Origin: Verrucomicrobiota bacterium
Lineage (GTDB): Bacteria; Verrucomicrobiota; Verrucomicrobiia; Limisphaerales; Palsa-1400
Direction: 5' to 3'
Assembly: GCA_049510745.1 (NCBI GenBank)
Contig: JBEKYR010000001.1
Location: 128,001 to 192,000, forward strand
Length of the DNA stretch: 64,000 bases
Notes under the pieces: model-generated
Told to the model about the DNA's origin: nothing
What the model saw: only the letters and a program-made list of their open reading frames with translations
Database searches by the model: none
Translations under genes and position numbers: made by a program
Part shown: positions 9,100-38,082 of the stretch, in pieces
Layout of the letters: every line of letters starts with the position of its first letter
Position numbering within the stretch: position 1 is the stretch's first letter

Positions 9100-9395
9100 G
9101 AATTGGAACCGTCATCGGCAGAGTCACTCTGAGCAAAACGGTGGAGCCGTTGCGCGGCGCCCGCTGGCTGATCGTCAGCCCGTTTACGCGCGAACAATTT
9201 CAACACGCGGCCCACCGGCCGGCCGTGAGCCAGGAACCGAGCCTGGTGGTGTACGATGATTTGGGCGGCGGCGTGGGTCAAACCATCGGATTCATCGAAG
9301 GCCGCGAAGCCGCCATGCCGTTCTGTCAACCCACGCCCATCGACGCCATCGACGCGGCGCTGGTGGACGAGATATTTTACTCGCCATTTAAATGA
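9096..9395 (+). CDS. EutN/CcmL BMC-P vertex protein
   Basis: MRIGTVIGRVTLS...YDDLGGGVGQ...EGREAAMPF...PIDA. Confidence 0.9.
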   Translation: MRIGTVIGRVTLSKTVEPLRGARWLIVSPFTREQFQHAAHRPAVSQEPSLVVYDDLGGGVGQTIGFIEGREAAMPFCQPTPIDAIDAALVDEIFYSPFK

Positions 9396-10441: not shown

Positions 10442-11370
10442 TGAAAGTGACCATTATCGGCGGCGGCGGACGGGTCGGCTCCTGCGCGGCGTATGCGTTG
10501 CAATGCGGCGGGCTGGTTTCCGAGATTCAAATCCTCGACGCCAATCGCGACCTGGCCGAGGGGGAGGCGCTGGACCTGATGCACGGCAGCGCGCTGGCCG
10601 GCGATCAGCGGATTTACGCCGGCGATTACGCCCGCGCCGCCGACAGCGAGATGTTCCTCATCACCGCCGGCCTGCGGCGCAAGCCCGACGAATCGCGCCT
10701 GGATTTGATCGGGCGCAACGTGGCCTTGTTCGTCTCGATCATCGACGCGATCAAAACCGCCGGCCCGCGCAAAGACGCCCACATTTTCGTCGTCTCCAAT
10801 CCGGTCGATATTCTGACGCAACTGGCCTTGCGCCGCAGCGGAATGCCGTGGCGCCAGGTCTATGGCCTGGGCACCATGCTGGACACGGCGCGCTTCAGCT
10901 CGCTCATCGCGGCGGAACTCAACCTGGCGCCGACGCAGGTGAAGGCGCTGATCCTGGGCGAGCACGGGGATTCGATGGCGCCGATCTGGTCCGGCGCGGT
11001 CGTCAACGGCCTGCCGCTGGCCGGGTTGCCCGAATGCGGGCCGGCCTTCCAAAACGCGGTGTTCGAACGCACCAAAGGCAGCGGCGCCGAGGTCATCAAA
11101 CGCAAAGGCGGCGCGGGCTGGGCCGTCGGCCTCGCCATCCGGGAGGTGGTCCACGCGGTGCTGTTGAACAAAAAAACAATTTTGCCGGTTTCCTCCCTCA
11201 TTCAAGGCGCCTACGACATCCGGGATGTTTGCCTGAGCGTGCCTTCGGTCGTCGGACGCCAGGGGATCGAAGCGCACGTCAACATCAAATTGTGGCCGAA
11301 GGAATTGATGGCCCTGCAAGCGTCGGCCAAGGCGCTCAAAGACACGCTGGCAAAAGTCCGCCTGGAGTGA
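10441..11370 (+). CDS. Lactate/malate dehydrogenase family protein (BMC-associated)
   Basis: IIGGGGRVG, TAGLRRKPDESR, VSNPVD, GTMLDTAR, LGEHGDS. Confidence 0.93.
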   Translation: MKVTIIGGGGRVGSCAAYALQCGGLVSEIQILDANRDLAEGEALDLMHGSALAGDQRIYAGDYARAADSEMFLITAGLRRKPDESRLDLIGRNVALFVSIIDAIKTAGPRKDAHIFVVSNPVDILTQLALRRSGMPWRQVYGLGTMLDTARFSSLIAAELNLAPTQVKALILGEHGDSMAPIWSGAVVNGLPLAGLPECGPAFQNAVFERTKGSGAEVIKRKGGAGWAVGLAIREVVHAVLLNKKTILPVSSLIQGAYDIRDVCLSVPSVVGRQGIEAHVNIKLWPKELMALQASAKALKDTLAKVRLE

Positions 11371-16059: not shown

Positions 16060-16293
16060 ATGAACGAACTATTGTCCCGCATCACGATTGATCCGGAGAT
16101 TTGCCACGGCAAACCGGCCATCCGCCACTTGCGGTATCCGGTGGAGTCCATGTTGGAATATCTGGCGGCAGGCGACACGTTTGAGGATTTGCTGGGCGAA
16201 TTCCCTGATCTGGAACGCGACGATTTGCGAGCGTGTCTGGAATTCGCCGCGCAATCGCTCAAGCTTAAAAGCCAGCATCTGGCGCTGACATGA
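16060..16293 (+). CDS. DUF433-family antitoxin
   Basis: RITIDPEICHGKPAIRHLRYPV...EFPDLERDDLRACLEFAA. Confidence 0.92.
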   Translation: MNELLSRITIDPEICHGKPAIRHLRYPVESMLEYLAAGDTFEDLLGEFPDLERDDLRACLEFAAQSLKLKSQHLALT

Positions 16294-16643
16294 GATTCGT
16301 GGTGGACGCGCACTTGCCGCCCGGTTTGTGTGCCCTGCTCAAGGCGGCGGGGCACGATGCGATTCACACCAGCCGGTTGCCTGCGCAAAACCGGACGCCG
16401 GACGAAGTTCTCAATGAACTTTCGCTCCAGGAACAGCGCGTGGTCGTCACGAAAGATTTGGATTTTTATCATTCGCATTTGCTGCATGGCAGGCCTTGGA
16501 AACTGCTGCTCGTGCGCACGGGGAACATTCGCAGCCGCGATCTCAAAGCGCTGTTTCAAACCCATTTGTCCGCCATCCTCACCGCGCTGGAACAAAACTC
16601 GCTTGTCGAACTCGACCGCCAAAAGGTGCAGGTCATTGTGTGA
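16290..16643 (+). CDS. DUF5615 PIN-like toxin
   Basis: MRFVVDAHLP...GHDAIH...TPD...VVTKDLDF; ATGA overlap with DUF433. Confidence 0.9.
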   Translation: MRFVVDAHLPPGLCALLKAAGHDAIHTSRLPAQNRTPDEVLNELSLQEQRVVVTKDLDFYHSHLLHGRPWKLLLVRTGNIRSRDLKALFQTHLSAILTALEQNSLVELDRQKVQVIV

Positions 16644-16805: not shown

Positions 16806-16900
16806 GGACGAATGGGACCAATGGGACGGATATGGACAGGCAAGACGGGGATTACGATTACGATTACGATTGAGAAAAGGACGAACGGGACAGACGGGAA
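16806..16900. repeat. Low-complexity REP-like block (GGACnnATG 9-mers and GATTAC x3-4)
   Basis: ggacgaatgggaccaatgggacggatatgg...gattacgattacgattacgatt...ggacgaacgggacagacggg. Confidence 0.7.
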
Positions 16901-16945
16901 GGCGAGCCAGCCGTTGGTGTCCAGGAAAACGACGTTATCCGGCAT
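16901..16945 (-). pseudogene. Truncated VapC/PIN toxin (N-terminal 15 codons only)
   Basis: MPDNVVFLDTNGWLA is the first PIN motif; overlaps the antitoxin end and runs straight into the repeat block. Confidence 0.7.
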
Positions 16946-17171
16946 GGTTTACTTTCGGATGTCCGTAGAGGTAATGATCCGCATTGGTGGCCAGATCGGG
17001 AATGCCGGTCTCGACTGCTTGCTCGCCCATCCGAAAAGGACCGCATTCACCCGCCACTATGCCGTGGCCGCCAGGCTCCTCGGTTTGGACGTGAACGGGG
17101 GCGCCGTCCGGGAGGGTCGCTCCTGGTTCCAGCATCACCACATTGCCTTTGACTGTTCCGCGGTAAATCAT
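16935..17171 (-). CDS. Putative antitoxin (swapped-hairpin/DUF104-like), paralog of 50816-51037
   Basis: MIYRGTVKGNVVMLEPGATLPDG...DLATNADHYLYGHPK aligns by eye with MSVTGKVKNGVVVLPPGTKFPEG...DYALNHGHYISGEPK. Confidence 0.75.
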   Translation of the reverse strand: MIYRGTVKGNVVMLEPGATLPDGAPVHVQTEEPGGHGIVAGECGPFRMGEQAVETGIPDLATNADHYLYGHPKVNHAG

Positions 17172-17357
17172 GATGTCAGTATCCGCACCTTCATCTAATT
17201 TCGCTCCGAGGCATTCGGCGCAAACTGTCAATGCTCATGTTCGTAAAGCTGCCGTACTGCGTGGAAACAAGCAAGCTCGGAGCGGAATCCCAAATCCTAA
17301 CGCGGCCTTACCGCCGAGCGATGACCTGTACAATTTGGATGGGAGAGCGAAGAAGCG

Positions 17358-17402: not shown

Positions 17403-17628
17403 GAAAGTCAGCGTTCAACGCGGAAGCGTAAAATGATCGCCCGCCTTGGACCCTGTGCCTCCAAACGCACAGGGGCAAGGGACCGCGAAGCGGGACAAAA
17501 GTTGAGTCTTTTGCCGCCTCCCCCTGTCTCAAAACCTGTCCAGCACTGTCGTAATAAGCCATTGCAAATGAGAAAAATCATCGTAACCTGTGCGTCGCTT
17601 CCGGCAGCCCAGTCTGCCTGAGAGCACC

Positions 17629-18591
17629 ATGCGACAATTTATTACAATCGCCGGAAATGCCTTTATGGAGCTGATCCGGCAGCCGGTTTTCCTGCTGCTG
17701 ATGACGGTTTCGTCGTTGTTTGAGGTGTTCCTGGCTTGCGTCAATTATTTCGGATTCGGGGACGAACCGAAGCTGGTCAAGAACAGCGCCCTAGCGGTGA
17801 TGCTCCTGGCCGGGCTGTTTGGGGCGGTGTTGAGCGCGTCGGCCTCGGTCGCGCGCGAAATCCGCAGCGGGACCGCCCTGGCCGTGCTGGCCAAACCGGT
17901 CAGCCGCGCCCAATTCCTGCTGGCCAAATACGCCGGTCTCGCTTTGGCGCTGGCTGTTCTGACTTTCGTCAACACCATCGCCGCCCTGCTGGCCACGCGC
18001 ATGGCTTTTGACGCATATGGCGACATCGATTATCCGGGGTTGAGTGTTTTTTGCGGCGCGCTGGTTTTGGGCTATGTCATCGCCGGGTTCAGCAATTTCT
18101 TCCTGCGGCGGCCGTTTGTTTCGGACGCGGTTTTCGCCGTGGTGGTGATGGCGGTGGTAGCCTTTGCGGTGTTGCAGTATATTCCGCGGGAAGCCGGGCG
18201 AATGGGGATGGATTACAAGGGAATCGATTGGCGGGTGATTCCCGCCTCGGCCTTGATCTGGATGGCGCTGCTGATCCTGGCGGCGCTGGCCCTGGCGTGC
18301 TCGACGCGGGTGGAAATGGTGCCGACGCTGGCGATATGTTCAGCCTTGTTTTTGATGGGGTTGGTGTCCGATTATTTCTGGGGGACGCGCGCCAAGGCCG
18401 GCACGTGGTGGGCTTCGGTGCTTTACGCCGTGACGCCGAATTGGCAATTGTTCTGGCTGGCGGACGCGCTGGAGGGGACCAACAAGATACCGTTGGGCTA
18501 TCTGGGCCGGGCGTTTGGCTATGCGTGCGCGTATATCGGGGCGATCCTGGCGCTGGCGCTGGCCTTGTTTGAGGATCGCGAACTGAGTTGA
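17629..18591 (+). CDS. ABC-2-type transporter permease
   Basis: Multiple TM helices; REIRSGTALAVLAKPVSRAQFLLAKYAG signature; start at ATG 17629. Confidence 0.88.
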   Translation: MRQFITIAGNAFMELIRQPVFLLLMTVSSLFEVFLACVNYFGFGDEPKLVKNSALAVMLLAGLFGAVLSASASVAREIRSGTALAVLAKPVSRAQFLLAKYAGLALALAVLTFVNTIAALLATRMAFDAYGDIDYPGLSVFCGALVLGYVIAGFSNFFLRRPFVSDAVFAVVVMAVVAFAVLQYIPREAGRMGMDYKGIDWRVIPASALIWMALLILAALALACSTRVEMVPTLAICSALFLMGLVSDYFWGTRAKAGTWWASVLYAVTPNWQLFWLADALEGTNKIPLGYLGRAFGYACAYIGAILALALALFEDRELS

Positions 18592-20471
18592 TGATAAGAA
18601 TGGAATCCAACGCCAAAAGAATTGGTTTGATGAACTGGATCGTCCTGCTGGGGGCGACGATCGGGATGCTGCTGGTGGCGCGCTTCGTCAGTTCGAGCGC
18701 GGCAGTGATGGCCACGGTGCTGACGGGATTCGGGCTGCTGGTGGGATTGTTGAGCTATTTCCACATGGGGTTGGTGGAGCGGGAACAGTTCGAGCGGATG
18801 GAAGTGGAGGAATTGAGCAAGGCACGCGGGAGCCAATCGCTCTTTGCGACCGCGGCGGCAGACACGTTTCCGGCCAAGCGCTCGCGGGAACAGTTCGAGC
18901 GGTTTATCGTCCCGGGTTTCACCGGGCTGCTGTTCCTGGCGCAAGGATGGGCCGCCTATTGGCCTTGGGAAAAGCTCCCGGCCATGCCCGCCCTGGCGGC
19001 TGATCGGGCGACGCTGGCCATGGCGTTGTTGGGGTTGTTCGGTCTGATCCTTTTTCTGCTGGGCAAATACTCCAGCGGGCTGGCCCGTCTGCAAAACCAG
19101 AAGTTGTTGCGTCCGGGCGCGGCCTATTTGCTGCTCAGCGCCTACGCCTGCTTTACCGCGACCTGCGCCATTGCCGCCGTCCTGGCGGGTTTTCCCAGGG
19201 CCGACCTTTTCGTCGGACGCGCCTTGTGCGTCATATCGGGATTGGCGGCGGTGGAAACGCTGCTGGCGTTGATCCTGGAGGTCTATCGCGTGCGGGTGCA
19301 GGGGCGGGACGCGCGATTGCTCTATGAAAGCCGGCTGGTGGGATTGCTGGGCCAGCCGGAAGCGATCATCACGACCGCCGCGCACGCGCTGGATTACCAA
19401 TTTGGCTTCAAGGTGTCCGAGACGTGGTTTTATCGTTTTCTGGAAAAGGCGCTGGGCTGGCTGGTGCTGGCGCAATTGGGCGCATTGGTGGCATCGACCT
19501 GCTTTGTCATCATCCAGCCGGGCGACCAGGCGTTGCTGGAGCGTTTTGGCCGGCCATTGGGCAACCAGGGCGTGATCGGACCCGGCTTGCATCTCAAACT
19601 GCCCTGGCCGATCGACCGCACCATCGTTTATCACACCGAGCAAATCCAAACTTTCATCGTCGGCGCCGAACCGGAAAGGAGCGAGACGATTGCCTGGGCT
19701 GTGAGCCACGCCAAAGAGGAGAATTTCCTGGTGGCGAGCAAGGAATTGAATCCGGAGATTCAATCCAACCAAATGACGGAGGCGAAAAGCCCGCCGGTCA
19801 ACCTGCTTTCGGTCAGCATCCCGGTGCAATATCAGATCACCAATCTGGCCACCTGGGCCTACACCAACGAAGACCCGCAAACGCTCCTCAAAGGCATCTC
19901 CGAGCGCGAGGTGGCCCGCTATCTGGCCAGCGCCGACCTGGATGATTTGATGTCGCGCGGACGGGCCGCCGCCGCCGAGAGCCTGCGCCGAAACATCCAG
20001 GGGCAGGTGGACACCCTGCAATTGGGGGCGCGCGTGACTTTTGTCGGCTTGGAAGACATCCATCCGCCGGTCAAGGTGGCGAAGATTTTTGAACAGGTGG
20101 TGGGGGCGGCGCAGACCCGGGATTCGAAGATATTGCAGGCGCAGGCCTATGCGGTCTCGACCAACGCTTTCGCCAGCGGAGAAAGTTTCAAGAGGGTGGC
20201 CACAGCCAACGCCGACGAGCACAGCGCGGTGACCAATTCCGCCGCCCGGGCCGTGCTCTTTGCCAGCCAGCAAATGGCTTACAGCGCCGCGCCAGGCCGC
20301 AACGGCGTCTATGAGCAGCGCGCCTACCTGGAAACCCTCGTCGAGGGCGGCAGCCAGTCGCGCAAGTACATCATTGCCACCACCAACACGCCGGACATCC
20401 TCATTTTCAATCTGGAGGACAAAATACGGACAGATTTGATCGACAAGCTCCCGTCGCCGACTCAAAAGTGA
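18591..20471 (+). CDS. SPFH (HflK-like) protein with large multi-pass N-terminal membrane domain
   Basis: About 7-8 TM helices, then IQPGDQALLERFG...PGLHLKLPWPID...LEDIHPPVKVA and a coiled coil; start 18591 or 18600. Confidence 0.85.
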   Translation: MIRMESNAKRIGLMNWIVLLGATIGMLLVARFVSSSAAVMATVLTGFGLLVGLLSYFHMGLVEREQFERMEVEELSKARGSQSLFATAAADTFPAKRSREQFERFIVPGFTGLLFLAQGWAAYWPWEKLPAMPALAADRATLAMALLGLFGLILFLLGKYSSGLARLQNQKLLRPGAAYLLLSAYACFTATCAIAAVLAGFPRADLFVGRALCVISGLAAVETLLALILEVYRVRVQGRDARLLYESRLVGLLGQPEAIITTAAHALDYQFGFKVSETWFYRFLEKALGWLVLAQLGALVASTCFVIIQPGDQALLERFGRPLGNQGVIGPGLHLKLPWPIDRTIVYHTEQIQTFIVGAEPERSETIAWAVSHAKEENFLVASKELNPEIQSNQMTEAKSPPVNLLSVSIPVQYQITNLATWAYTNEDPQTLLKGISEREVARYLASADLDDLMSRGRAAAAESLRRNIQGQVDTLQLGARVTFVGLEDIHPPVKVAKIFEQVVGAAQTRDSKILQAQAYAVSTNAFASGESFKRVATANADEHSAVTNSAARAVLFASQQMAYSAAPGRNGVYEQRAYLETLVEGGSQSRKYIIATTNTPDILIFNLEDKIRTDLIDKLPSPTQK

Positions 20472-20472
20472 T

Positions 20473-21432
20473 ATGAAACGAAATCCCCTTACCCTGTTAG
20501 TGGCCTTCATCTTGATCGTCATCTTCGGCTTGCTCCTGTTTATTTACCAGGTGCGCAAATCCGAGGCGGCGGTGGTGACACGATTCGGCAAGATCGACCG
20601 CGTCAAGACCGAGCCTGGCCCCGGCCTGCGCTGGCCCTGGCCGATCGAAGACGTCTATAAGCTGGACCAGCGCATCCAGAACTTCGAGGGCAAGTACGAG
20701 CAATTCAAGCTGCCCGACCAGAACATCATCCTCTTGTCGGTCTATGTCGGCTACCGCATCGAGGACCCGAAGGCGTTCTTCCCCAAGTTCGCCAAAGGGT
20801 CGATTCCCGAGGCGGAAAAGGTGCTGGAAGACTTGGTGCGCAGCGCCAAGAATGAAGTGGCCGGACAGCATCCCTTCTCGGATTTCGTGGCGACCGATGA
20901 ACGGCAGATGAAATTCACCCAGATCGAAAACGAAATCCTGCAAAAAGTGCGCAAACAAGTGACCGAGCTGAACTACGGGCTGGACATGAAGTTCATCCAG
21001 ATCAGGAAAATCGGGCTGCCCGACAGCGTGACGCAAAACGTCTTCGACCGCATGACATCCGAGCGGCAGTACTACATCTCCAAGGTCCAGTCGCAGGGCG
21101 AGGAGGCGGCGAAAAAGATCAAATCCGAAGCCGACAGCAAGGCCGCCATCCTGCTGGCCGACGCCGACGCCCAGGCCTTCAAAATCCGGGGCGAAGGCGA
21201 GGCGCAGATGATGAAATCGCTGGCGGTGTTGCAGGAGAATCCGGCGCTGGCCACGTTCAACATGCAGATTTCCGCGTTGCAGCAATTGCTCAGGGAAAAA
21301 TCGACCCTCGTGCTCGATGCCAGCAGTTCCCCGTTGCAGTGGCTCCAGATGCAGCAAGCGGGCAAATCCGCCCCGACCAATGCCGCTTCCCCGGCTGAGG
21401 CCGGCTCGCTGACGAATAAAGACCCGAAATGA
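20473..21432 (+). CDS. hflC: HflC-like SPFH protein
   Basis: One TM, VVTRFGK, PGLRWPWPI, IGLPDSVTQNVFDRMTSER, IRGEGEA. Confidence 0.88.
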   Translation: MKRNPLTLLVAFILIVIFGLLLFIYQVRKSEAAVVTRFGKIDRVKTEPGPGLRWPWPIEDVYKLDQRIQNFEGKYEQFKLPDQNIILLSVYVGYRIEDPKAFFPKFAKGSIPEAEKVLEDLVRSAKNEVAGQHPFSDFVATDERQMKFTQIENEILQKVRKQVTELNYGLDMKFIQIRKIGLPDSVTQNVFDRMTSERQYYISKVQSQGEEAAKKIKSEADSKAAILLADADAQAFKIRGEGEAQMMKSLAVLQENPALATFNMQISALQQLLREKSTLVLDASSSPLQWLQMQQAGKSAPTNAASPAEAGSLTNKDPK

Positions 21433-22538
21433 ACCCCCAGGACCCCATTCTGCCCTCGCCGCCGCCGAGCGCGCCGCCCCCGCCCCCGCCGGGTCCGCCG
21501 CCGGCTGTGGAAGACGCCGGAACGCAGGCGCTGGCCGAAGCCCTGCGCAGCAGCTTTTTCATTGTCAAGATCATTATGGTGGGGCTGGCGCTGGTCTTCC
21601 TTGGCTCGGGCTTTTTCACCGTCGGTCCGCAAGAGAAAGCGGTCATCCTGCGCCTGGGCAAGCCGATCGGGGAAGGCGAGGGCGCGCTGCTCAGTCCGGG
21701 TTTGCACTGGGCCTTTCCCCGGGGCATTTATGAAGTCGAACACATTCCGTTCACCTCCCTGCAAATGGCCGAGTCGTCCGTCGGCTGGTACCTGACGCCC
21801 GAAGAGCGCGCCAAAGGAGCCGCCCCGCCGCCCGGCTCGTCCTCGCTCAATCCGGCCACCACCACCTACGCATTGACGGCCGACACCAACATCATTCACG
21901 TCGTGGCGACCCTGAAATACCGGATCACCGACCCGATTACCTTCCATTTTGATTTTGCCAACGCGCCGTCTTTCATCACCAACGCCCTGAACAACGCCTT
22001 GCTGTTTGCCACCAGCCAGTTTCCAGTCGATGACATCCTGACGCGAAACCGGGCCGCCTTCCGGGAACGGGTCACGGAACGGGCCCGTCAATTGATTGAC
22101 TCGCAAAAAATCGGAGTGACGGTGGATCAATTGGATGTCGATGCCTCGCCCCCGCTCTATCTCAAGCCCAAGTTTGACGAAGTCGATACGGCCATGCTCA
22201 AACGCGACAAAGCCCGCAACGACGCGCAGAGCTACGCGACCACCACCGAGGCGGAAGCCCGCGGCGAGTCCGCCACGCGCGTCTTTGTCGCGGATGCCCA
22301 GCGCAAACGGCTGGTGGAAATGGTGACCGCGCAAGCCGACACCTTCCAGAAACTGCGGGGCCAATACGAGCATGACCCGGCGTTTTTCGAGCGCGTCCGC
22401 CAGATGACGGTGCTGGAGGAGGTTTATACCAATGCCCAGCAAAAGATCATCATGGCGCCGAACACGCATGAGTTGCGCCTGGAATTGAGCCGCGAGCCGG
22501 AGGCGCCTTCCACGAATAACATCATCATGTCGCAATAA
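21429..22538 (+). CDS. hflK: HflK-like SPFH protein
   Basis: Pro-rich N-terminus, one TM, SGFFTVGPQEKAVILRLGK, PGLHWAFP, ALTADTNII, A-x-x-Y coiled coil. Confidence 0.85.
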   Translation: MNPQDPILPSPPPSAPPPPPPGPPPAVEDAGTQALAEALRSSFFIVKIIMVGLALVFLGSGFFTVGPQEKAVILRLGKPIGEGEGALLSPGLHWAFPRGIYEVEHIPFTSLQMAESSVGWYLTPEERAKGAAPPPGSSSLNPATTTYALTADTNIIHVVATLKYRITDPITFHFDFANAPSFITNALNNALLFATSQFPVDDILTRNRAAFRERVTERARQLIDSQKIGVTVDQLDVDASPPLYLKPKFDEVDTAMLKRDKARNDAQSYATTTEAEARGESATRVFVADAQRKRLVEMVTAQADTFQKLRGQYEHDPAFFERVRQMTVLEEVYTNAQQKIIMAPNTHELRLELSREPEAPSTNNIIMSQ

Positions 22539-22542
22539 TTTT

Positions 22543-24609
22543 ATGCAAGTGACCTCTCTCCTGAGCCGCCGCGAAGACGAGCATGACCACGCGCACGGGG
22601 AATCGTGCGCCAATGGCGGCCACGACCACGACCACGCCGTGCTGCCGCTGGCGCAAACGTTGATTGGCCTGGTCTTTGTCCTCAATTCGTTTGTCGTCAA
22701 CTGGTTCTTTTCCGACAACGCCAACCCGATCGCGGACGGCAGCGCGATGATCGGGGCGATCATCCTCGGCTACCCGATTGTCTGGACGGCCATCAATGAT
22801 TTGCGCCGGGGTCTGCTCACGACCAACGAACTGGTGGCCCTGGCCGTGGTGGCTTCCTTTGGCTCGGCGAATCTCCTGGTGGTTTCCTTTGGCTCGGCGA
22901 ATGTCCAAGTGGGCGGCTACCAGCAGGCGGGCGTCATCGCCTTCTTCATGTTGATGGGCCAAATCATTGAAACGCGCACGGCCGAAGGCGCCCGCGCTTC
23001 CATCGAATCCCTCATCAAGCTCACTCCGCCCAAAGCCCGCCGCGTCACCAAAGACGGCGAAGAGGAGATCGAAACGAAGCTCCTCGCCGTGGGCGACGTT
23101 ATTCGAGTTCGTCCCGGAGACAATGTCGCGGCCGACGGGGTGATTGTGACCGGCCAGGGTTCCTTCAATCAGGCCACCATCACCGGCGAGTCCTTGCCGG
23201 TCGATAAAAAGCCCGGGGACGAAGTCTTTGCCGGGACGCAAAACCTGACGGGAGCGCTGGAAATCCGGGTGACGCGGGCGGGGCAGGACACGACGTTGGG
23301 CAAGGTGCGGGAACTGATCCTGGCGGCGGAGAAAACCAAGCTGCCGCTGATGCGGATCATCGACCAGTACATGGGCTATTATACGCCGCTGGTGCTGCTG
23401 ATCGGCGCATTGGTGTGGGCGTTCACCTCCGATATGAGCCGCGTGATCACGGTCCTTATTGTCTCGTGTCCGTGCGCTTTCATTCTCGCCACACCCAGCG
23501 CGATGGTCGCGGCCCTGTCGGCCGCCGCGCGGCTGGGCATCCTAATCAAAAACGTCGGCGACATCGAGTTGGCGGCGCGCATCAACGCATTTGTATTTGA
23601 CAAAACGGGCACTCTCACCACGGGACGGCTGGCCGTCAGCCGCCTTCAGCCCATGAACGGCGCGACGGCGGCGGAACTGCTCCGCGTGGCGGGTTCGGCC
23701 GAGAAATACAGCAACCATCCCACGGCCAAGGCGCTGGCCCAGTTGGCGGGCGAAGCCGGCGTGCCCCTTTGCGAGCCGAAGGATTTCGCCGAAGCCGCCG
23801 GCCGGGGCGTCAGCGCGCAGGTCGAAGGGGCCAGGGTGCTGGTGGGCCGCGCCCAGTGGCTCAAGGAACAAGGCATCGCGGAGGATTTTCTCAAATCCGT
23901 CGATCTCAATGAAACGGAGGGTTTCAGCCTGATCTTCGTGGCCCGCGACGGCAAATGCCTCGGGTGGGTCGGCCTGCAAGACCAAACCCGCTCCGAAGCC
24001 CGCGAGGCGCTGGCCGATCTGAAATCCACCGGCGTGCGCCGCATCGCCATGATTTCCGGCGACCGCCAGCCGGTGGCCACCCGCGTCGCGCGCGAAATCG
24101 GCTGCGAAGAAGTCATGGGCGAATGCCTCCCGCAGAACAAAGTGGATTTTGTCCGCCAAATAAAAGCCAAAGGCTACCGCGTGGCTGTCGTCGGCGACGG
24201 CGTCAACGACGCGCCCGCGCTGGCGGCCGGCGACCTGGGCATCGCCATGGGCGCGGCGGGCAGCGAAGTGGCCATCCACAGCGCCACCATCGCGCTGATG
24301 AACAACGATCTGCGCCGCCTGCCGTTCCTGGTCCGGCTCTCGCGCCAGACGCGGTCGGTCATCAACCAGAATTTCCTTGTCGGCATTGTGTTTGTCATCG
24401 GCGGCCTGGTTTTGGCCTCGCTCAAGTACATCAATCCGATCACCGCCGCCGTCCTCCACGTCATCGGTTCGCTCATTGTTGTCTTCAACAGCGCCCGGCT
24501 CGTGCGGCAGGGCGAGGAGTTGGAACCGCACCTGGCCGCCGCGCCGGAAGCGCCCGGCCCATCGGCGCCAACCCCGCCGTCTCTGACGCCCAAAGCTGTG
24601 CCTGCATGA
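22543..24609 (+). CDS. Heavy-metal P1B-type ATPase with His-rich N-terminus
   Basis: TGES, SCPC, FDKTGTLT, SNHP, GDGVNDAP; N-terminal EHDHAH...HDHDH. Confidence 0.95.
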   Translation: MQVTSLLSRREDEHDHAHGESCANGGHDHDHAVLPLAQTLIGLVFVLNSFVVNWFFSDNANPIADGSAMIGAIILGYPIVWTAINDLRRGLLTTNELVALAVVASFGSANLLVVSFGSANVQVGGYQQAGVIAFFMLMGQIIETRTAEGARASIESLIKLTPPKARRVTKDGEEEIETKLLAVGDVIRVRPGDNVAADGVIVTGQGSFNQATITGESLPVDKKPGDEVFAGTQNLTGALEIRVTRAGQDTTLGKVRELILAAEKTKLPLMRIIDQYMGYYTPLVLLIGALVWAFTSDMSRVITVLIVSCPCAFILATPSAMVAALSAAARLGILIKNVGDIELAARINAFVFDKTGTLTTGRLAVSRLQPMNGATAAELLRVAGSAEKYSNHPTAKALAQLAGEAGVPLCEPKDFAEAAGRGVSAQVEGARVLVGRAQWLKEQGIAEDFLKSVDLNETEGFSLIFVARDGKCLGWVGLQDQTRSEAREALADLKSTGVRRIAMISGDRQPVATRVAREIGCEEVMGECLPQNKVDFVRQIKAKGYRVAVVGDGVNDAPALAAGDLGIAMGAAGSEVAIHSATIALMNNDLRRLPFLVRLSRQTRSVINQNFLVGIVFVIGGLVLASLKYINPITAAVLHVIGSLIVVFNSARLVRQGEELEPHLAAAPEAPGPSAPTPPSLTPKAVPA

Positions 24610-25823
24610 GTGCTGTCGCTCAAATCCCCGCGACCGCCGCGCCCGCGCCCGAAATGCCCCGTTCCGGCGAGCCGGTGGTCGCCGTGCGCGGATTGACCAA
24701 AATTTTCAAGGACTTCTGGGGCCGCCCCAAGGCCAAAGCCGTCGATAACGTCGATTTTGAAGTGCGGCGCGGCGAGGTCTTCGGCCTGCTGGGCCCCAAC
24801 GGTTCCGGCAAATCGACCACGGTCAAGCTGCTGCTCGGATTGCTCTATCCGACCCGCGGCCACATCGAAGTCTTCGGCCATTCCCCGCGCCACGTGGCGA
24901 GCAAGGCGCACATCGGCTACTTGCCAGAGGAATCCTACCTTTATCGCTTTTTGGATTCGCGCGAAACGCTCGACTTTTTCGGCAACCTTTTTGATTTGCC
25001 CGCCGGGCAGCGCCGCCAGCGCAACGAACAGCTTTTGGAAATGGTCGGCTTGAGCCAGGTGCGCACGCGGGTGGTCGGCGAGTTTTCCAAGGGGATGCAG
25101 CGGCGCATCGGACTGGCCCAGGCGCTGATCAACGATCCCGACCTGGTCCTGCTGGACGAGCCGACCGCCGGCATGGACCCCATTGGCTGCCGCGAAGTCA
25201 AGGACCTGATCCTCGCCCTGGCGCGCCGGGGCAAAACGGTCATTCTCAGCAGCCATTTGCTCTCCGAAGTCGAGGATGTCTGCGACCGTGTCGTCATCTA
25301 TTATGGCGGACGCATTCACGCCATGGGCACCTTGAAGGAATTGCTCACCAAGCCGGACTCCGTGCGCATTACCACGCCGCTGCTGCCGCGCGAGAGCATG
25401 GAACAGGTCCTGAACATCATTCGCAAGGACGTGGGGGAGGAGAAAATTCAGATCGACAACCCGACGCAAAACCTGGAGAGCTATTTCCTGGATGTCGTGC
25501 GCCAGGCAAAGGAGCGTCTGGAGGAAACTTCCGGCGCCACTTCCGGCAGCCACGTCGCCGCCTACCTGCGCGGCGACGCGGAATCCGAGCCGACGACGGA
25601 CAAGGTCCTGGAACGGCTGACCCATGCGGCCGCGGCCAAGCCGGCGGAACCCGCGCCCGCACCCGAACCCCAGCAGAAGATCGACCAGGCCAAACTGGAA
25701 TCGTTGGCCAAGCCCGCCGAGCCTGCGGCCCCGCCGCCGCCGCCGCCGCCGGCGCCCCCGGTCGATTTGGACAAAGCCAACCAGAAGCTCTCCTCGCTGC
25801 TGGGCCATCCGGGCGAGAAATGA
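24606..25823 (+). CDS. ABC transporter ATP-binding protein with C-terminal Pro/Ala-rich extension
   Basis: GPNGSGKST, FSKGMQRR, LLDEP, SSH; start at ATG 24606 overlapping the ATPase stop. Confidence 0.93.
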   Translation: MSAVAQIPATAAPAPEMPRSGEPVVAVRGLTKIFKDFWGRPKAKAVDNVDFEVRRGEVFGLLGPNGSGKSTTVKLLLGLLYPTRGHIEVFGHSPRHVASKAHIGYLPEESYLYRFLDSRETLDFFGNLFDLPAGQRRQRNEQLLEMVGLSQVRTRVVGEFSKGMQRRIGLAQALINDPDLVLLDEPTAGMDPIGCREVKDLILALARRGKTVILSSHLLSEVEDVCDRVVIYYGGRIHAMGTLKELLTKPDSVRITTPLLPRESMEQVLNIIRKDVGEEKIQIDNPTQNLESYFLDVVRQAKERLEETSGATSGSHVAAYLRGDAESEPTTDKVLERLTHAAAAKPAEPAPAPEPQQKIDQAKLESLAKPAEPAAPPPPPPPAPPVDLDKANQKLSSLLGHPGEK

Positions 25824-27199
25824 AGAAAGTCCTGGCCATCGCGGGATTGACTTGGAAATCCGCCTTCCGCTACCGCCTCTTCTGGATCCTGGCCGCGCTG
25901 CTGCTCGGAGCGGTCGTGGGCCTGCCGCTGCTGCTCAGAGACGACGGCACAGCCAAGGGGCTGACCCAAATACTATTGACTTACACCTTGAGCGCGGTGG
26001 CAACGCTCCTGGGCATTGCCACCCTCTGGCTCTCCTGCGGCACCCTGGCCAAGGACGTCGAGGAATGCCAGATGCAGGTCGTCGCGGTCAAGCCCATCGC
26101 CCGCTGGCAAATCTGGCTCGGCAAGTGGCTCGGCCTGCTTTCCCTCAACGCCGTCCTGCTGGCCCTGGCCGGCGCCGCCATTTTTGCCCTGCTCAATTGG
26201 CGGGCCGGCCGCCTTCCCGCCGCCGAGCAAAAAATCCTCCGCGACGAGGTTTTTGTGGCGCGCGCCTCGGTGCGGGACCGTCCGCCGGACTTTTCCGCCG
26301 AAGTTGAAAAACTCATGCGAGAACGGGTCAAAGACCCCGCGGCGTTAAGCGCGTCCGACCTGGCGGAAATCCGCAAGCAAGTCAGCGAGGAACTCAAGTC
26401 CGCCTTGACGGAAGTGCCGCCGGGTTTCCGGCGGCGCTGGGGCGTCAACTTGCGGAGCGTGCGCGACCGCTTGCGGGATCAACCGCTGGAGTTGCGGGTC
26501 AAATTCCACACCGCCAACCCCAACGAGGACGCCCGCTACCTGACCGGCTGGATCGTCGGCCCGGCCAACTCTCCCCGGCAGGTGGCCATTGAGCAGACGT
26601 TGCCGCCGGATTCCTTCCAGGAATTCCAAGTGCCCGCCAATCTGCTGGACGACAAGGGCATCCTGTGGGTCGATGTGGTGAACCCCAATGAAACGTCCCT
26701 GACGTTTCCGTTGGAGGATGGATTCGAGCTGCTCTATCCGGAGAGCACATTCGAGATCAATTTTGTGCGCGGGATCGCGGTCATTTTCTGCTGGCTGGCC
26801 CTGCTGGCCTCGATTGGCCTGGCCATGGCCAGTTTCCTTTCCTTCCCCGTGGCGGCGTTTGCCTCGCTGGCGCTGCTGCTCATGGGCTTCTCCAGCGGCA
26901 CTATCGGCTCGGTGGTCGAGCAAGGCACGATCATGAGCTACGACTCGGCCAAGTCGGCTTACGGCCATTCGCCGATCGATGTGGTCATTGTGCCGGTGTT
27001 CCAGGGGGCGCTGAAAATCATCAAGCTGGTCGAGAGTTTTTCGCCGGTCGATTTTCTCAGCACGGGCCGGAGCATCACGTGGGGCCAATTGGGATTGGCG
27101 GTGGCGCAAATCATCCTGTTGCTGGGCGGGTTTTTCTGCGTCGTGGGCATTATCCTATTCACCCGGAGAGAATTGGCCACCGCGCAGGGCAATAGTTGA
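25820..27199 (+). CDS. ABC-2-type permease with large extracytoplasmic domain
   Basis: TM helices, VKPIARWQIWLGKWLG motif, C-terminal FTRRELA. Confidence 0.85.
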   Translation: MKKVLAIAGLTWKSAFRYRLFWILAALLLGAVVGLPLLLRDDGTAKGLTQILLTYTLSAVATLLGIATLWLSCGTLAKDVEECQMQVVAVKPIARWQIWLGKWLGLLSLNAVLLALAGAAIFALLNWRAGRLPAAEQKILRDEVFVARASVRDRPPDFSAEVEKLMRERVKDPAALSASDLAEIRKQVSEELKSALTEVPPGFRRRWGVNLRSVRDRLRDQPLELRVKFHTANPNEDARYLTGWIVGPANSPRQVAIEQTLPPDSFQEFQVPANLLDDKGILWVDVVNPNETSLTFPLEDGFELLYPESTFEINFVRGIAVIFCWLALLASIGLAMASFLSFPVAAFASLALLLMGFSSGTIGSVVEQGTIMSYDSAKSAYGHSPIDVVIVPVFQGALKIIKLVESFSPVDFLSTGRSITWGQLGLAVAQIILLLGGFFCVVGIILFTRRELATAQGNS

Positions 27200-27201
27200 G
27201 G

Positions 27202-27630
27202 TCATTCGGCGAACCGGGCCAGTTCGCGCCAGTTCCCGCGCAATCGATCCAGCAAGCGCGCGTCGGCGGCGGGGAATTCGTAGTTGAAAAGGTCCGCCGC
27301 GGTGACCCATGCCAGGTCCTGGCCCGCGGGCGTTTGTGGCTCGTGCCGCAGCCAGCGGCAACGGAAGAAGCGCAGATGCACCGAGCGGTCGGGATACTCA
27401 TGGGTGAGCGCTTCCACCAGATCGTGGACTTGCACCTCGATGCCCAATTCCTCGGCCAGTTCGCGCCGCAAACATTGCTCGTAGGATTCGCCGGGTTCGC
27501 GCTTGCCGCCGGGGAATTCCCACAAACCGCCCAGGTGCGCCCGGGGCGGACGGCGGGCAATGAGCAATTTTCCATCGCGGAAGACCAGAGCCGCCGCCAC
27601 TTCGATCGTGCTCCCGCCCGCGCCGGTCAC
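27202..27630 (-). CDS. mutT: MutT-like NUDIX (d)NTP pyrophosphohydrolase
   Basis: GGLWEFPGGKREPGESYEQCLRRELAEELG Nudix box; FPAAD. Confidence 0.9.
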   Translation of the reverse strand: MTGAGGSTIEVAAALVFRDGKLLIARRPPRAHLGGLWEFPGGKREPGESYEQCLRRELAEELGIEVQVHDLVEALTHEYPDRSVHLRFFRCRWLRHEPQTPAGQDLAWVTAADLFNYEFPAADARLLDRLRGNWRELARFAE

Positions 27631-28925
27631 GCCTTCCCCCGACCGATGCTCTTGTAGAGGAAGCCCAGACGCTCCATTTCCTCGAAGTCAAATAGATTTC
27701 GGCCGTCGAAGATAATGGGGTGGGTCAGGCCCTTTCTGGCCCGCTCCAGGTCCAGGCGCTTGAACTGGGGCCACTCGGTGGCGATGACCAGGGCGTCGCA
27801 GCCTTCCGCCACATCATCCATGTCCGCCACGTACTGCGCGTCCGGGAGCACGGGTTTGGCCTTTTCCATGGCCTGGGGATCATGGACGCGCAGGCGCGCC
27901 CCCTCTTTGAGCAGGCGCTGGCACAGTTCGATGGCGGGGGACATCCGCACGTCGTCCGTGTTCTGCTTGAAGGCCAGACCGAGGACGCCGATGGTCTTGC
28001 CCTTGAGGACCCAGAGGGTGTCGGAAATTTTCTTGACAAAGCGGTTCATCTGCTCGGCGTTGATGCGCTGCACCTCCTCCAGCAGGCCGAAGCGGCAGCC
28101 CAGCGCCTCGGAAATGCGGATGAAGGCGCTCAAGTCCTTGGGGAAGCAACTCCCGCCAAAGCCGAGCGAGGCGTCCAAAAACTTGCGGCCGATGCGGGCG
28201 TCCATCCCCATGCCGTTGGCCACCTCTTGGACGTTGGCGCCCGATTTTTCGCACAGGACGGAAATGGCGTTGATGTAGGAGATTTTCAGGGCCAGGAACG
28301 AGTTGGCGGCGTGCTTGATCAGCTCCGCCGAATTGATGTCGGTGACGATGACGGGGGCCTGGTAGGGGGCGTAAACCTCCTTCATCGCCGCCACCGGACG
28401 CGGCGACAAGACCCCGATGACGACGCGGTCCGGCTTCATGAAATCCTCGACGGCAAAGCCCTCGCGCAAGAACTCCGGGTTGCTCACGACGTCAAACTCC
28501 ACCTGGGCCTTGCGATAGCGTTTGATGGTCTCGGCCACCTTTTCCCCCGTCTTGACCGGGACGGTGCTTTTGTCAACTATAATCTTGTAGGCCGTCATGG
28601 CGCCGGCAATCTCGCGCGAGACGCCTTCGATGAAACTCAAATCCACCGAGCCGTCCGGCTGCGGGGGCGTGGGCACGGCGATGAAGACCACGTCGGACTG
28701 ATCGACCCCTTCCCGGGTGCTGGCGGTAAAACGCAAGCGGCCGGCGGCGGTGTTCTTTTTCACCAATTCGGGCAGGCCCGGTTCGTAAATGGGCATGCCG
28801 CCCGCCTGGAGGAGCTTGACCTTTTCGACGTCCTTGTCCACGCAGATGACATGATGGCCGGCCTCGGCGAAACAAGTGCCTGTGACCAGCCCCACATAGC
28901 CGGTTCCAATAATGGTCAGGTTCAT
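27627..28925 (-). CDS. ugd: UDP-glucose 6-dehydrogenase
   Basis: IGTGYVGL, KSTVP, SNPEFLREG, GFGGSCFPKD, DGRN; start at ATG 28925. Confidence 0.96.
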   Translation of the reverse strand: MNLTIIGTGYVGLVTGTCFAEAGHHVICVDKDVEKVKLLQAGGMPIYEPGLPELVKKNTAAGRLRFTASTREGVDQSDVVFIAVPTPPQPDGSVDLSFIEGVSREIAGAMTAYKIIVDKSTVPVKTGEKVAETIKRYRKAQVEFDVVSNPEFLREGFAVEDFMKPDRVVIGVLSPRPVAAMKEVYAPYQAPVIVTDINSAELIKHAANSFLALKISYINAISVLCEKSGANVQEVANGMGMDARIGRKFLDASLGFGGSCFPKDLSAFIRISEALGCRFGLLEEVQRINAEQMNRFVKKISDTLWVLKGKTIGVLGLAFKQNTDDVRMSPAIELCQRLLKEGARLRVHDPQAMEKAKPVLPDAQYVADMDDVAEGCDALVIATEWPQFKRLDLERARKGLTHPIIFDGRNLFDFEEMERLGFLYKSIGRGKA

Positions 28926-29800
28926 CGAGGCGCGGAATTGGACGAGACAGGCGGAATGGTCAGGAGATTGATGCCGGAATTGGGGGTGGCCGGGTTTGGC
29001 TTGGGCTGGGCAGGGGCAGGCCCCTTGGAAGCGGAGGCGGCGGGCGGCAAGGGCACCTTGACGGTGGGCTGGGAGAGGGAGAAAGGGGCCGGAGCGGGAG
29101 CGGCCTCCGCCTTGCGCAATTCGGGATGTTTGGCGACCAGAAGCTGGCCGCGCTCGCGGGCTTCGGCGGCCCAAGGGTCGTAGGGGTTTTGAATGCGGGC
29201 CAGCTCGGAGTAGAAGGTCAGGGCCTGCTGCGGTTTGTTTTCCTCCTCAAAAAGGCGGGCGAGAGTCAATTTGGCCGGGGTCACGATGTTCAGATCGGAA
29301 GGAAAAGCCGAAATGAGTTCCTGGTATTTTTGAATGGCCTCGGAATTCCTGCCCTGCGCCTCGACGGAGGCCGCCACGCCCATTCTGGCTTGGGCAATCA
29401 GGGCGCTGTCGGGATGGTCGCTGAGGAACTTGGAGAACTGCTCCTGAGCCTCCGGGTATCTGCCCTCCGTGAACAAGGTTTCGGCCCCGAACAATTCGGC
29501 GTATTCGCCGGCGGGGGTATTGGGATACTGGCGGGCCAGATCGAGCAAAGGCCCCGGGGAAACCGGCGCGGAGCGCGCGGCCATCCCGACCGGGGTCGGG
29601 ACGGCAAAAAGCTGGGCATTGGCGCTGGCCTCATCGGCGGCCTTTTTCCAGGAAACCAGGCCCCACGCCAGGGCGATGACGGCGACAACGATGGCCCCGA
29701 TGATAACTCGCTTGCGGTTGGCGTGGACCCAGGCCACCAGTCTGAAAAACACATCCGCCGACTGCGCCGACGGCGTTGACTGCGTTGTTTGAACATCCAT
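28922..29800 (-). CDS. Membrane-anchored TPR protein (YfgM-like)
   Basis: N-terminal TM, TPR-like helices (YPNTPAG, YPEAQEQFSKF, EAIQKYQEL), Pro-rich tail; start estimated. Confidence 0.8.
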   Translation of the reverse strand: MDVQTTQSTPSAQSADVFFRLVAWVHANRKRVIIGAIVVAVIALAWGLVSWKKAADEASANAQLFAVPTPVGMAARSAPVSPGPLLDLARQYPNTPAGEYAELFGAETLFTEGRYPEAQEQFSKFLSDHPDSALIAQARMGVAASVEAQGRNSEAIQKYQELISAFPSDLNIVTPAKLTLARLFEEENKPQQALTFYSELARIQNPYDPWAAEARERGQLLVAKHPELRKAEAAPAPAPFSLSQPTVKVPLPPAASASKGPAPAQPKPNPATPNSGINLLTIPPVSSNSAPR

Positions 29801-31714: not shown

Positions 31715-34700
31715 TTATGCGTGTTCCGTCCGTGCTGCGCGCAGGCCGGGGCCGAAAATCCCGAAGACGGCCAATGCTCCCGCCAGTATCAGCAGGCGCA
31801 GCGTCAGCGATGCCGTCCGCGCCACGGTCGCCTGCAAATTGACTTTCAAATCGGCCCACGGCTCGACGGCCACGGCGCGTTTGAAGGTCAGCACCCGGCC
31901 TTGTTCGGGGATGCTGGCGCGGATGCCCGCCGGGTTGCTCACGGCCGCGTCCTGCTGCTGGATGAGCTTCTCCGCCAGGCGCATGAAGGCGGCGTTTTCC
32001 TCGGCGGTGTTGATGTCAATTATATCCTTGGCGTCCTGCTGGGTGTAGTTCATCTCTTTGCGGCTGCGCAGGTCGCGCAGTTTGCCGCCCAGCGCGCCGG
32101 GGTCCCCGGCCGCCGCCGATTGGCGCGCGTTCAACCCGATGAGCGCCTGCTGCAGCTTGATGTTGTGCAGTTGCACGCGGGCGTCCTCGTTGAAGGCGGG
32201 GTCGTGCGTCGAAAGGTCAAAGGCGTTTTCGAAGGCGCGCCGGGCCTGCTGCGGGTCGCCGTTCGCCAGGGAATTGTTGCCGATGGCCAAAAATTGCTGG
32301 GCTTCCGCGATCCGCGCCTGTTGCAGGTTGTTTTCGTTTAGCAGGTAGGATTGCGCGTCCACCGCGACGGCGGGCGGAGTAACCTGCTGTTCCTGCAGTT
32401 GGAGCGAGCCGGTCCAATGCTTGACTCGCCACTTGTCGCTCAGGGAAAGTTTCCAGGTGATGTCTTCCAGGGGCAGATCGAATTTCGGCGCGAGCAAGGC
32501 CAGATCGAGCGAGCGCGCGTCCGCCTGGCCGGTGCGGCAACTGTGGAAAATTTCCACCGCCACCGGCTTGTCCCCGGCCGACTGCCGCTCCAGCGGGATG
32601 AGGATTTTGTCGCCGTCGCGCCAGGGCCAGACGCCGCTGTCGTTGACAAACGCAAACCAGAACCGGGCCTCCGGCGGGAGCGTCACGCCGAGCAGGCGCT
32701 TGTCGCCGGGGAGAATTTCCAGGCGCGTGCGCGTGAGCATGATGCCGTCGTCGGAGATGACGGATTGGAAAGTGATATTATTGACACGGGCGGGAAGCAG
32801 TTTGGCGGCCTCGTGGCGTTCGAGTTTGAGCGGGAGTTGGAACGACGGCTCGACCAGGCGGTAGGTGAAATTGGCGGCGACGGCTTGCAAGTCCTTTTGC
32901 AGGGCGCGCGGGATGCTCTGCCATTCGGTGGGCTGGAGGGCTGCCGGCGGGTGGTCCACGGCCACCTGGAGGCGCGGGTCGGATTGGACGGTGACAAAGC
33001 CCCGTTGCAGGTTGACATCGGCCGCTTCCACGCCGCGCAAAACGGTCTCCGTGGCCTGGCCGGGCAGGAGAATTTGATAAGCGGCCTGAAGCAAGTATGG
33101 GCCGATGAAGCGCCGGCGCAGTTTCACTTCCCATGCCCGCAACCCATTGGTGACAGCGCCCGGCGTTTGGAGAAAATCCGCCACCTGGTCGCCCTGGAAG
33201 CGCACGCCCTCGGCGTTGGTGGGGATGAGAACGCGAAAGGCTTTCAGCCCGGTGTTCTCGATCTGATACTGCAAATTGGCCGTGACCTTGATTTGCGCTT
33301 CGCTGATGACCGCATGTTGCAGGCTCGTCACCTGAATCCACGGGTCCACCTGCTCGATGTCCAGCGCGAGCGTGGCGGGAACCTGCAAGGCGCGAAAACC
33401 GAGCACTCCTTTCTGACGGACGCCCGATTTCTGCGGGTCCAACTGCGTGTAACCTTCGCGCGCCGCCACCTGCAAGCGCATGCCCTGCTCCGGCACAATG
33501 AGCAGGGCGCCCCGCTGTTTGCCCGCTTCGCGCAGCACGACTTGCGGCACCTTCCAGTCCCGCGCCGTTTTCACGCCGGGACCGGCGAGGGTCAGGGCGA
33601 AGGCGTGCGGCCCCAGCGTCTTGCCGGTCAGATGCAACGTGATGACGCGCCCCGCTTCCGTCTTCAAGTCCGTCCACTGGCTCAAGACGGGGCTGCTGAT
33701 GGATTCGACGTCGAACCCCGCCGGCATGAGAAAGCTCAACTCGAAGATGCCCGCGCGGGTGATGTCCACCGTGAAATTGTCCGCCAGCACGGTGCGGTCT
33801 TCACCGAGCGACAACGTATCGTCGGTTTCCACGCGCACATCCGGCTCGACCGCCGCGGCCCGCAAGGCCACGCTGGCGTTGGTGTCCGAATAACGGAAGG
33901 CGCGGCGCAGGGCCAGGTCCGGGATTTGCCCTTGCAGCGCCGCCACGGCGTCGCCGGGAAAATCCTCCAGGTTGATGGGCGAGAGCGCATGAGGGGTGAC
34001 AGTGTCGAGTTGCACTTCGCTGCCGGTGGCGATGCCCGTCAAACCGATCTGCCCCGCCGCGTTTTCCACCGTGACCAACCCGGCGGATTGTTCGAAGGGC
34101 AGCGGCCCGGCGGCGATTTGCGACCGGACGAGAACCACAAAGGGCCGCGACTGGGCGGGATTCAAGGTCACGCGCAATTTGCCGGTGTCCGGGTCGAAGC
34201 GCCAGAGGGAGACCAGTGAACCGGCGGAGTTTCCTTGTTTGGCCGGATCGATCACATCGGTGACCGTCGCGCCCGGCGGCACGTTGAGGATCAATTCGCC
34301 CAACTCGCCTTGGGCGGGGCGAATGGAAACGTAATGGGCTCCTTCGATGACGCCGGCCAGCGGCACATAAAGCTGCGCCACCTCGGCGTAAAAGACCGGC
34401 TTCTCGTGCGTGACATCGCGCCGGCGCGGACGCCAGGTGATCGAGGCCTCCGCCGGCGAGAGCACCAGCGCCGCCACCGTGTTGGAGCCGGGGTGGTCGC
34501 AGTGAATCGAGACGGCCTGCGCCGACAAGACATCGACATCGAGATCGACGACCGTGAGATGGAGTTGATTGATCAAGCCGTAGGGCACGGGCAGCGTGAA
34601 GCCGCTTTCGGTTTTGTCGTTCGCCACCGGCGCCTGGTATTGGACTTCGATGTCGAACACGCCGCCCGCCAGCGCGACCAATTGTTGCGAGTATCTTGAG

Positions 34701-38068: not shown

Positions 38069-38082
38069 AAATGGTTCGTGAT

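Follow-up and report, generated by a model that had tools for sequence, protein, structure and literature searches.

Which membrane proteins besides FtsH might be held by bacterial SPFH cages? The question is raised by seven adjoining genes, termed A to G here, in a 64,000-nucleotide stretch of a Verrucomicrobiota genome (assembly GCA_049510745.1, contig JBEKYR010000001.1, positions 128,001 to 192,000; this whole stretch is called the window and its numbering is used below), where three relatives of HflK and HflC are encoded beside a P1B-type ATPase and parts of an ABC-2 transporter. We found that the locus consists of two separable modules, an SPFH-pump cassette (B-C-D-E) within an ABC-2 operon, and that the pumps accompanying such SPFH trios form a clade of their own. 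The SPFH scaffold likely holds this pump rather than FtsH. As regards the roles of bacterial SPFH cages besides FtsH, the cassette names both a specific cargo, the P1B pump, and a candidate docking part, a dead CDF domain.

A conserved operon composed of two modules

A sequence-only reading of this DNA had described seven co-directional, tightly coupled genes with no FtsH among them, and both points were borne out. All seven open reading frames (ORFs) lie on the + strand within 17629..27199, with intergenic gaps of -4, +1, -4, +4, -4 and -4 bp, and FtsH is encoded outside the cluster, by a complete gene on contig C3 of the same genome. Pfam and NCBIfam identified A as an ABC-2 permease, B, C and D as Band_7 proteins, E as a P1B ATPase, F as an ABC ATPase and G as a permease (Table 1).

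The cluster is real and deeply conserved. The gene-neighbourhood comparison suggested earlier was made with the best 80 loci of 597 matches: the order ABCDEFG was complete in 52 of these 80 Verrucomicrobiota loci, beyond chance, and among the remaining 28, the contig ends no more than about 1 kb further on in 24, while four break after E with more than 5 kb of sequence beyond. The closest titled relatives of the cluster were mostly Verrucomicrobiota. A profile of B matched 136 of 301 genomes of the phylum (E 1e-20), part of these being plain HflK matches. The locus is near-universal in some Verrucomicrobiota families (47/48 and 21/21 genomes, those of 1.8-2.5 Mb included), which points to a core envelope function.

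The two modules can be told apart by their distribution. In 150 sampled genomes of the phylum (thresholds 1e-60 for B, 1e-40 for A and 1e-35 for G), 57 carried full-length B and 75 carried A and G, counts in which kin are not independent and drafts may miss genes; 18 of the 75 had no full-length B. Of 20 distant stretches from the phylum, 18 have the pump beside the trio (B-C-D-E), 11 have F next in line and seven have A in front; three hold all seven genes together. Conversely, 7 of the 17 stretches fetched to look for such a layout carry A-F-G as an unbroken run in which F comes directly after A. B-C-D-E occurs without the ABC-2 module in the Verrucomicrobiota stretches L186-L189 and on plasmids of Rhizobium, Paraburkholderia, Burkholderia and Klebsiella; the layout long HflK, HflC, HflK, P1B is seen in the window and in the plasmid loci L081-L084. 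Since A-F-G stands without the cassette and B-C-D-E without the ABC genes, the history is most simply one in which the cassette was inserted between A and F of a pre-existing ABC operon.

Two of the plasmid copies have features of their own. In the Burkholderia sp. copy (L083:12308-14247) the pump is split over two frames, and the Paraburkholderia cassette (L082:112-7706) lies downstream of genes for a GTP-binding protein, a zinc ABC operon, DUF2946 and a PCuAC chaperone.

Table 1. Features of the operon and its upstream region, in window coordinates
Feature	Position	Strand	Details
A: ABC-2 permease	17629..18591	+	320 aa; 8 predicted transmembrane (TM) segments (hydropathy); PF12730 E 3e-7
B: HflK-clade SPFH, multi-TM + Band_7	18588..20471	+	627 aa
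C: HflC-clade SPFH	20473..21432	+	319 aa, one TM; TIGR01932, tree
D: HflK-clade SPFH	21429..22538	+	369 aa, one TM; TIGR01933, tree
E: P1B ATPase	22543..24609	+	688 aa; TIGR01525 542.6 bits, cut-off 346
F: ABC ATPase	24606..25823	+	405 aa; PF00005 E 2e-32; Walker A, signature, Walker B, H-loop
G: type V (ABC-2) permease with inserted extracytoplasmic beta-sandwich	25820..27199	+	459 aa; AlphaFold pLDDT (predicted local distance difference test) 83
Upstream motif TGTGC-NNN-CARAC-GCACA, near-palindromic	17454..17471	+	candidate; likely response-regulator operator
Sigma70-like promoter candidate (TTGCAA, 16 nt, TAACCT)	17562..17589	+	aligned upstream regions, conserved

The SPFH trio and the CDF-like domain of B

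In a quick tree of 38 rows, B and D grouped with E. coli HflK and C with HflC (SH-aLRT 99 each), and each of the three formed one group across phyla. All missed the equivalog cut-offs, B and D scoring 114.6 and 127.3 against 159.4 for TIGR01933, and C 115.4 against 134.4 for TIGR01932. With two proteins of the HflK clade and one of the HflC clade, a ring of alternating K and C subunits (B-C-D-C) would be at least as likely as the heterotrimeric cage first envisaged. Compared with the E. coli HflK/HflC-FtsH cage (7vhp, 7wi3, 9cz2), the trio shares the SPFH fold, the clades and the predicted periplasmic topology, but it has two K paralogues, one of which bears a six-TM CDF-fold domain, falls below the equivalog cut-offs, lacks the hfq-hflX context and is linked to a pump. 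Median identities were 47-50% for the SPFH proteins and 75% for the pump, the most conserved member.

The seven to eight extra TM helices previously ascribed to one SPFH protein proved, in the AlphaFold model of B, to be six plus the anchor helix, seven in total (residues 2-34, 37-79, 95-132, 138-169, 172-199, 205-233 and 280-305). The first six make up an N-terminal CDF-fold domain (~1-235), followed by the linker DYQFGFKVS, the anchor helix and the SPFH domain. Structure alignment matched the N-domain to ZnT3 (Z 15.1, 201 residues at a root mean square deviation (rmsd) of 4.2) and SLC30A10 (Z 14.9, 172 residues at rmsd 2.5), with the next unrelated helical bundle at Z 10.1 and ferritin-like bundles at no more than Z 10, and hhalign gave 91% against a profile of 32 CDF proteins and below 0.5% against four control membrane families. 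PF01545 matched none of 73 B members, a Foldseek search of B missed the CDF match, and ESM Atlas results for B 1-290 (scores 0.79) were uninformative.

The six-helix fold and its order are the same in B residues 1-240 as in the CDF/ZnT transporters (ZnT3 9jj1, SLC30A10 9kvx), but B has lost site A: among 152 homologues, Asp at positions 49 and 184 was found in none, His45 (TM2) in 22 and His180 in four. Furthermore, a linker and SPFH domain replace the cytoplasmic metal-binding domain. The linker after helix 6 is the best-conserved stretch of B; because six helices precede it, CDF topology would place it in the cytoplasm and the SPFH domain in the periplasm, as in HflK/C. The N-domains of four proteobacterial B proteins also have six hydrophobic segments, which aligned weakly to the Verrucomicrobiota profile (hhalign 6%) and to CDF (1%), so that a CDF origin is unsupported for them. 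The SPFH proteins contained no metal-rich motifs.

The pump belongs to a trio-linked clade

E has a His-rich N-terminal tail, CPC at 309-311, DKTGT at 353, TGES and an M6 histidine, His639, and has no M5 Lys or Asn ligand at position 618. In an alignment that included E. coli CopA and ZntA, DKTGT, TGES, HP, CPC and His639 were invariant in 59 of 59 close homologues, all of which have Ile or Val at 618; residue 640 is Asn in 23 of the 59 and Val in the window. E therefore carries neither the P1B-1 signature (CopA: M5 Tyr-Asn and M6 Met) nor that of P1B-2 (ZntA: M5 Lys and M6 Asp). P1B-4 and P1B-6 are defined by SPC and by N-X18-H-N-X-S/T, respectively (PMC13460109), and E fits neither fully, having CPC instead of SPC and no M5 Asn at 618. 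General P1B chemistry, together with the CPC and M6-His site, suggests outward transport of a substrate in the Zn/Mn/Co/Fe class.

In a FastTree phylogeny, all 23 trio-linked pumps and two close homologues of unknown context formed one clade with support 1.0, which excluded ZntA, CopA and 20 other pumps. The proteobacterial trio-linked pumps, represented by the plasmid copies, fell within this clade; PA2435 itself was absent from the tree. Eroded metal motifs were seen in the trio-linked pumps of L107, L112, L190, L191 and L098 (TCPI, TCPV, ACPI, ACPM and AVPA), and the M6 histidine is changed to Gln in four; a change or loss of substrate is possible there.

Pumps are also found fused to SPFH domains. 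At L182:6440-11336, a 1004-aa P1B-SPFH fusion is encoded just ahead of an HflC- and an HflK-type gene; the same genome holds a standard A-B-C-D-E cluster (L183) as well. P0005 is a 1226-aa P1B-SPFH fusion. In the L182 fusion, the pump occupies the position of the CDF domain of B. Longer forms of E included one SPFH fusion among the 120 listed, and no longer forms of D were found among 8000 candidates. An apparent 716-aa fusion (L185) was discarded as an ordinary HflK with an over-long frame.

The ABC module and an eighth gene

The ABC ATPase motifs of F and the type V membrane fold together identify an ABC-2 (type V) transporter, and F has in addition a conserved C-terminal extension. In fold, G matched NosY best (Z 19.7, rmsd 4.0 over 245 residues), with a Z score just 3 higher than for unrelated ABC-2 exporters; the beta-sandwich of G (~residues 146-310) matched CBM-like folds at Z 7-9 only, and Foldseek returned nothing useful for G. 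In 57 loci, ABC-only ones included, the gene next after G is an eighth one, H, which encodes about 500 aa. In this genome H (493 aa) lies away from the operon, at G000:C34:25010-26491 (L209:6011-7492). H has an N-terminal hydrophobic segment, with weak TPR matches in 6 of 33 members and the automatic Atlas name 'IRE family protein'.

The place that H takes in relatives is occupied in the window by a NUDIX (MutT-like) gene and a probable UDP-glucose dehydrogenase gene, the latter assigned by eye, at 27202-29174 on the - strand, ending 2 bp from G. In two genomes (L194, L196), a rhomboid protease gene precedes A of the stand-alone ABC operon and an extracytoplasmic-function (ECF) sigma factor gene follows the operon.

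An upstream motif shared with prepilin-like genes

No Zur or Fur box was evident: the best scores in 74 upstream regions equalled those of shuffles, the test patterns being a Fur consensus, a general Zur consensus and a Pseudomonas Zur site from PMC8456098. By contrast, 24 of 70 upstream regions, and none of 1400 shuffles, contained an 18-bp motif with perfect arms (Table 1). Across 41 related genomes, the strict pattern had 40 matches in 20 genomes, with none in the control; the loose palindrome TGTGC-N8-GCACA was not enriched genome-wide over control and was discarded. A consensus promoter scanner reported no sites, the sigma70-like candidate included, and Rfam had no match with E up to 1 between window positions 16500 and 28000.

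Genes downstream of the strict motif at 39 loci comprised 18 prepilin-like genes, six copies of gene A, nine genes for large secreted proteins (glycine-rich, Calx-beta/Ig and FN3) and six other or unclear ones, mostly classed by eye from the N-terminus and, many sites being orthologous, not independent. Only 0.16% of random positions in this genome have a prepilin-like motif in the 300 bp downstream of them. The 18-bp motif likely links the operon to pilin-like and surface-protein genes. Prepilin genes were not enriched beside the operon, and no pilin gene adjoins it. A glycine-rich secreted protein of more than 1038 aa with no Pfam match (G000:C6:1-3115, L212) is preceded by one perfect and one degenerate motif copy, and proteins similar to it follow the motif in five other loci.

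One site (G000:C5:182964-190548, L211) lies between a prepilin-MlaE-ABC ATPase-MlaD/MCE operon and divergent genes for a Reg_prop/Y_Y_Y sensor kinase and a REC+HTH response regulator. Regulator and strict motif co-occurred across the 41 genomes (both in 19, motif only in one, regulator only in three, neither in 18), and the regulator was found in 21 of 23 genomes with a perfect operon motif versus 9 of 34 without, 12 intermediate cases being excluded. From this co-occurrence, the motif is likely the operator of the C5 response regulator, and it offers a first testable regulon that joins the operon with DUF1559-type prepilin-like proteins; L211 is a candidate for the master locus of such an undescribed regulon. 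Upstream of 32 more distant loci the motif was not found (best 12 of 15 matches); it is therefore a feature of this lineage, and could be part of the promoter of the ABC operon, with the cassette as a passenger.

Relation to known systems

The four-gene core is already a published, mechanistically unexplained locus, PA2439-hmtA of Pseudomonas aeruginosa. By its published description (PMC4542158 Table 2), PAO1 has the same order as the cassette of the window, three HflK/HflC-family genes and then a P1B ATPase, and the proteobacterial plasmid copies of that layout group with B, C, D and E. PA2434-PA2439 rise 5.6-14-fold in a znuA mutant and have a weak Zur site (PMC4542158), proteins of the locus increase on zinc depletion (PMC11761036), and Zur shifts the PA2439 promoter (PMC8531726). 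Hence the Pseudomonas locus is Zur-bound and zinc-responsive, whereas the lineage of the window has a different motif and no Zur box, and no ABC module is described in Pseudomonas. Deletion of the trio gave about 20% less biofilm and attenuated virulence in Galleria with no growth defect (PMC13086221); the text of that paper does not mention hmtA, an ATPase or copper. The Pseudomonas locus comprises PaFlo5/6/7 (PA14_33070/33080/33110), PA2436 and HmtA (PA2435); PMC9431628, which maps PA to PA14 genes, annotates PA2437-9 as FtsH modulators.

The claim that no characterised system has this make-up accordingly holds for the mechanism and fails for the four-gene core, which is induced on zinc depletion and whose trio has been deleted with slight phenotypes. 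In the literature covered, from which supplements and most subscription journals were absent, we found neither a description of the operon in the Planctomycetes-Verrucomicrobia-Chlamydiae (PVC) group nor any report of SPFH-P1B complexes or CDF-SPFH fusions.

Two further systems resemble one module each. In the mycobacterial PacL-CtpC/G/V effluxosomes, a co-encoded membrane scaffold stabilises and clusters P1B pumps, and CtpC, like E, pairs CPC with an M6 His; PacL, however, is a small DUF1490 protein that acts from the cytoplasm and is unrelated to SPFH (PMC13460109), and none of the seven operon proteins contains a DUF1490 domain. The ABC genes are laid out as in Myxococcus PilGHI and NosDFY-type modules, in which an ABC ATPase likewise goes with ABC-2 permeases and an accessory protein anchored in the membrane. 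G folds like NosY, and prepilin-like genes share the motif of the operon; PilG/H/I are said to be required for pilin passage across the inner membrane (PMC3724824). The window differs from these modules in having two different permeases and no pilin gene beside the operon.

A proposed role for the cassette, and its rivals

With moderate confidence, we favour a model in which a K-C ring docks its own P1B pump through the dead CDF domain and linker of B, stabilises it and receives its metal on the periplasmic side, the ABC transporter being co-regulated but separate. By analogy with HflK/C, the K-type B and D would alternate with the C-type C and fence a membrane patch, and the periplasmic ring would hold and stabilise the pump. 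The CDF domain and conserved linker of B may provide the docking site, because the fused pump sits at the position of that domain. A divalent transition metal probably leaves the cytoplasm via the pump, and in the chamber it would be passed to envelope proteins. A, F, G and H, the ABC module, likely make up a machine of their own for envelope biogenesis, with a PilGHI-like layout and a promoter shared with the cassette, and in about half of this order the two-component regulator likely drives that promoter, as well as prepilin-like and surface-protein genes. Enclosure of transporters by stomatin (PMC12407830) and clustering of P1B pumps by PacL scaffolds (PMC13460109) are precedents. Context supports a cage around the pump well, and the case for one around the ABC transporter is weak; of the cage around pump and exporter that the sequence-only reading had drawn, a scaffold dedicated to the pump is supported by the clade and the fusions, and the ABC transporter as integral cargo is unsupported as drawn, as the modules occur apart.

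Several observations weigh against this model. CPC is intact in only 14 of the 23 trio-linked pumps and His639 is replaced by Gln in four, so some clade members might not carry metal in the usual way; both fused pumps lie outside the trio-linked clade, so that the fusions are a parallel solution in another lineage. In one stretch (L114), B-C-D stands without a pump in its vicinity. The lack of a Zur or Fur box above chance is a further point, and full-length B was accompanied by A and G in all 57 genomes that carry it, which leaves room for a tighter link to the ABC module. Such a link is central to an integrated machine, in which the ring encloses both pump and ABC transporter, the pump feeds metal to the chamber and the ABC transporter acts as a NosDFY-like motor that loads it onto exported or pilin-like proteins. 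Besides the 57 genomes, the overlapping genes of a cassette embedded in the ABC operon, the complete order at most of the 80 loci, NosY as best match of G, and a 2-Mb genome (G070) in which B, A and G are each present twice, which hints at coupling of cassette and ABC module, all fit this. We nevertheless consider it unlikely, given that A-F-G can stand without the cassette, that A and G occur in genomes with no full-length B, that the proteobacterial cassette has no ABC genes, and that the NosY match barely exceeds those of other exporters. Its fullest elaboration would make the SPFH dome a periplasmic metallation chamber, with a pseudo-CDF subunit docking the pump in the ring, a NosDFY-like ABC motor and its helical partner loading the metal onto pilin-like and surface proteins, and one two-component system, whose operator precedes both the operon and the pilin-like genes, switching everything on; this we hold to be slightly less likely.

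The direction of transport and the identity of the client could also be other than proposed. HmtA is cited as a Zn/Cu importer (PMC8456098, PMC10393844, the latter asking for confirmation), at odds with outward transport, and the induction of its locus by zinc depletion, together with the zinc ABC operon and PCuAC gene near the Paraburkholderia copy, would suit a ring that gathers periplasmic Zn or Cu for an HmtA-type importing pump. This is decidedly improbable here: zinc does not repress hmtA mRNA (PMC8531726), established P1B topology puts the His-rich tail and the CPC site on the cytoplasmic side, the arrangement of exporters, the operon has no Zur box, and the SPFH proteins have no metal-rich motifs. 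Finally, B, C and D could be the HflK/HflC of this lineage, caging FtsH, with the pump and the ABC transporter as co-regulated neighbours or FtsH substrates. By tblastn they are the only HflK/C-like proteins of the genome, which also has FtsH, and could serve it too, a further point against a scaffold reserved for the pump; the clade assignments and the annotation of PA2437-9 agree with such a role. Yet P. aeruginosa has an ordinary hflK-hflC besides the trio (PMC13086221), the genomes G004 and G023 each carry a K/C pair apart from their trio, and an FtsH cage explains neither the pump clade nor the fusions nor the CDF domain; we regard it as the least probable of the readings considered. For the favoured docking of the pump, PA2439-hmtA offers a ready test bed, as the trio deletion exists, and the cassette may account for the odd behaviour of HmtA when expressed alone.

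Neighbouring genes

Upstream of the operon, a DUF5615 PIN-like gene (16290-16643) and a small divergent ORF (~16940-17200, - strand) are probably toxin-antitoxin-type remnants. Short tandem repeats, GATTAC in about four copies and GAATGGGAC-like units, lie downstream of the DUF5615 gene at 16812-16875. Beyond the other end of the operon, an ORF of 2335 aa (31715-38722, - strand) contains a central hydrophobic region and repeated blocks. At 9392-11370, a class II aldolase-like gene is followed by a lactate/malate dehydrogenase-like gene, assigned by eye, a pair also known from planctomycete-type microcompartment loci.

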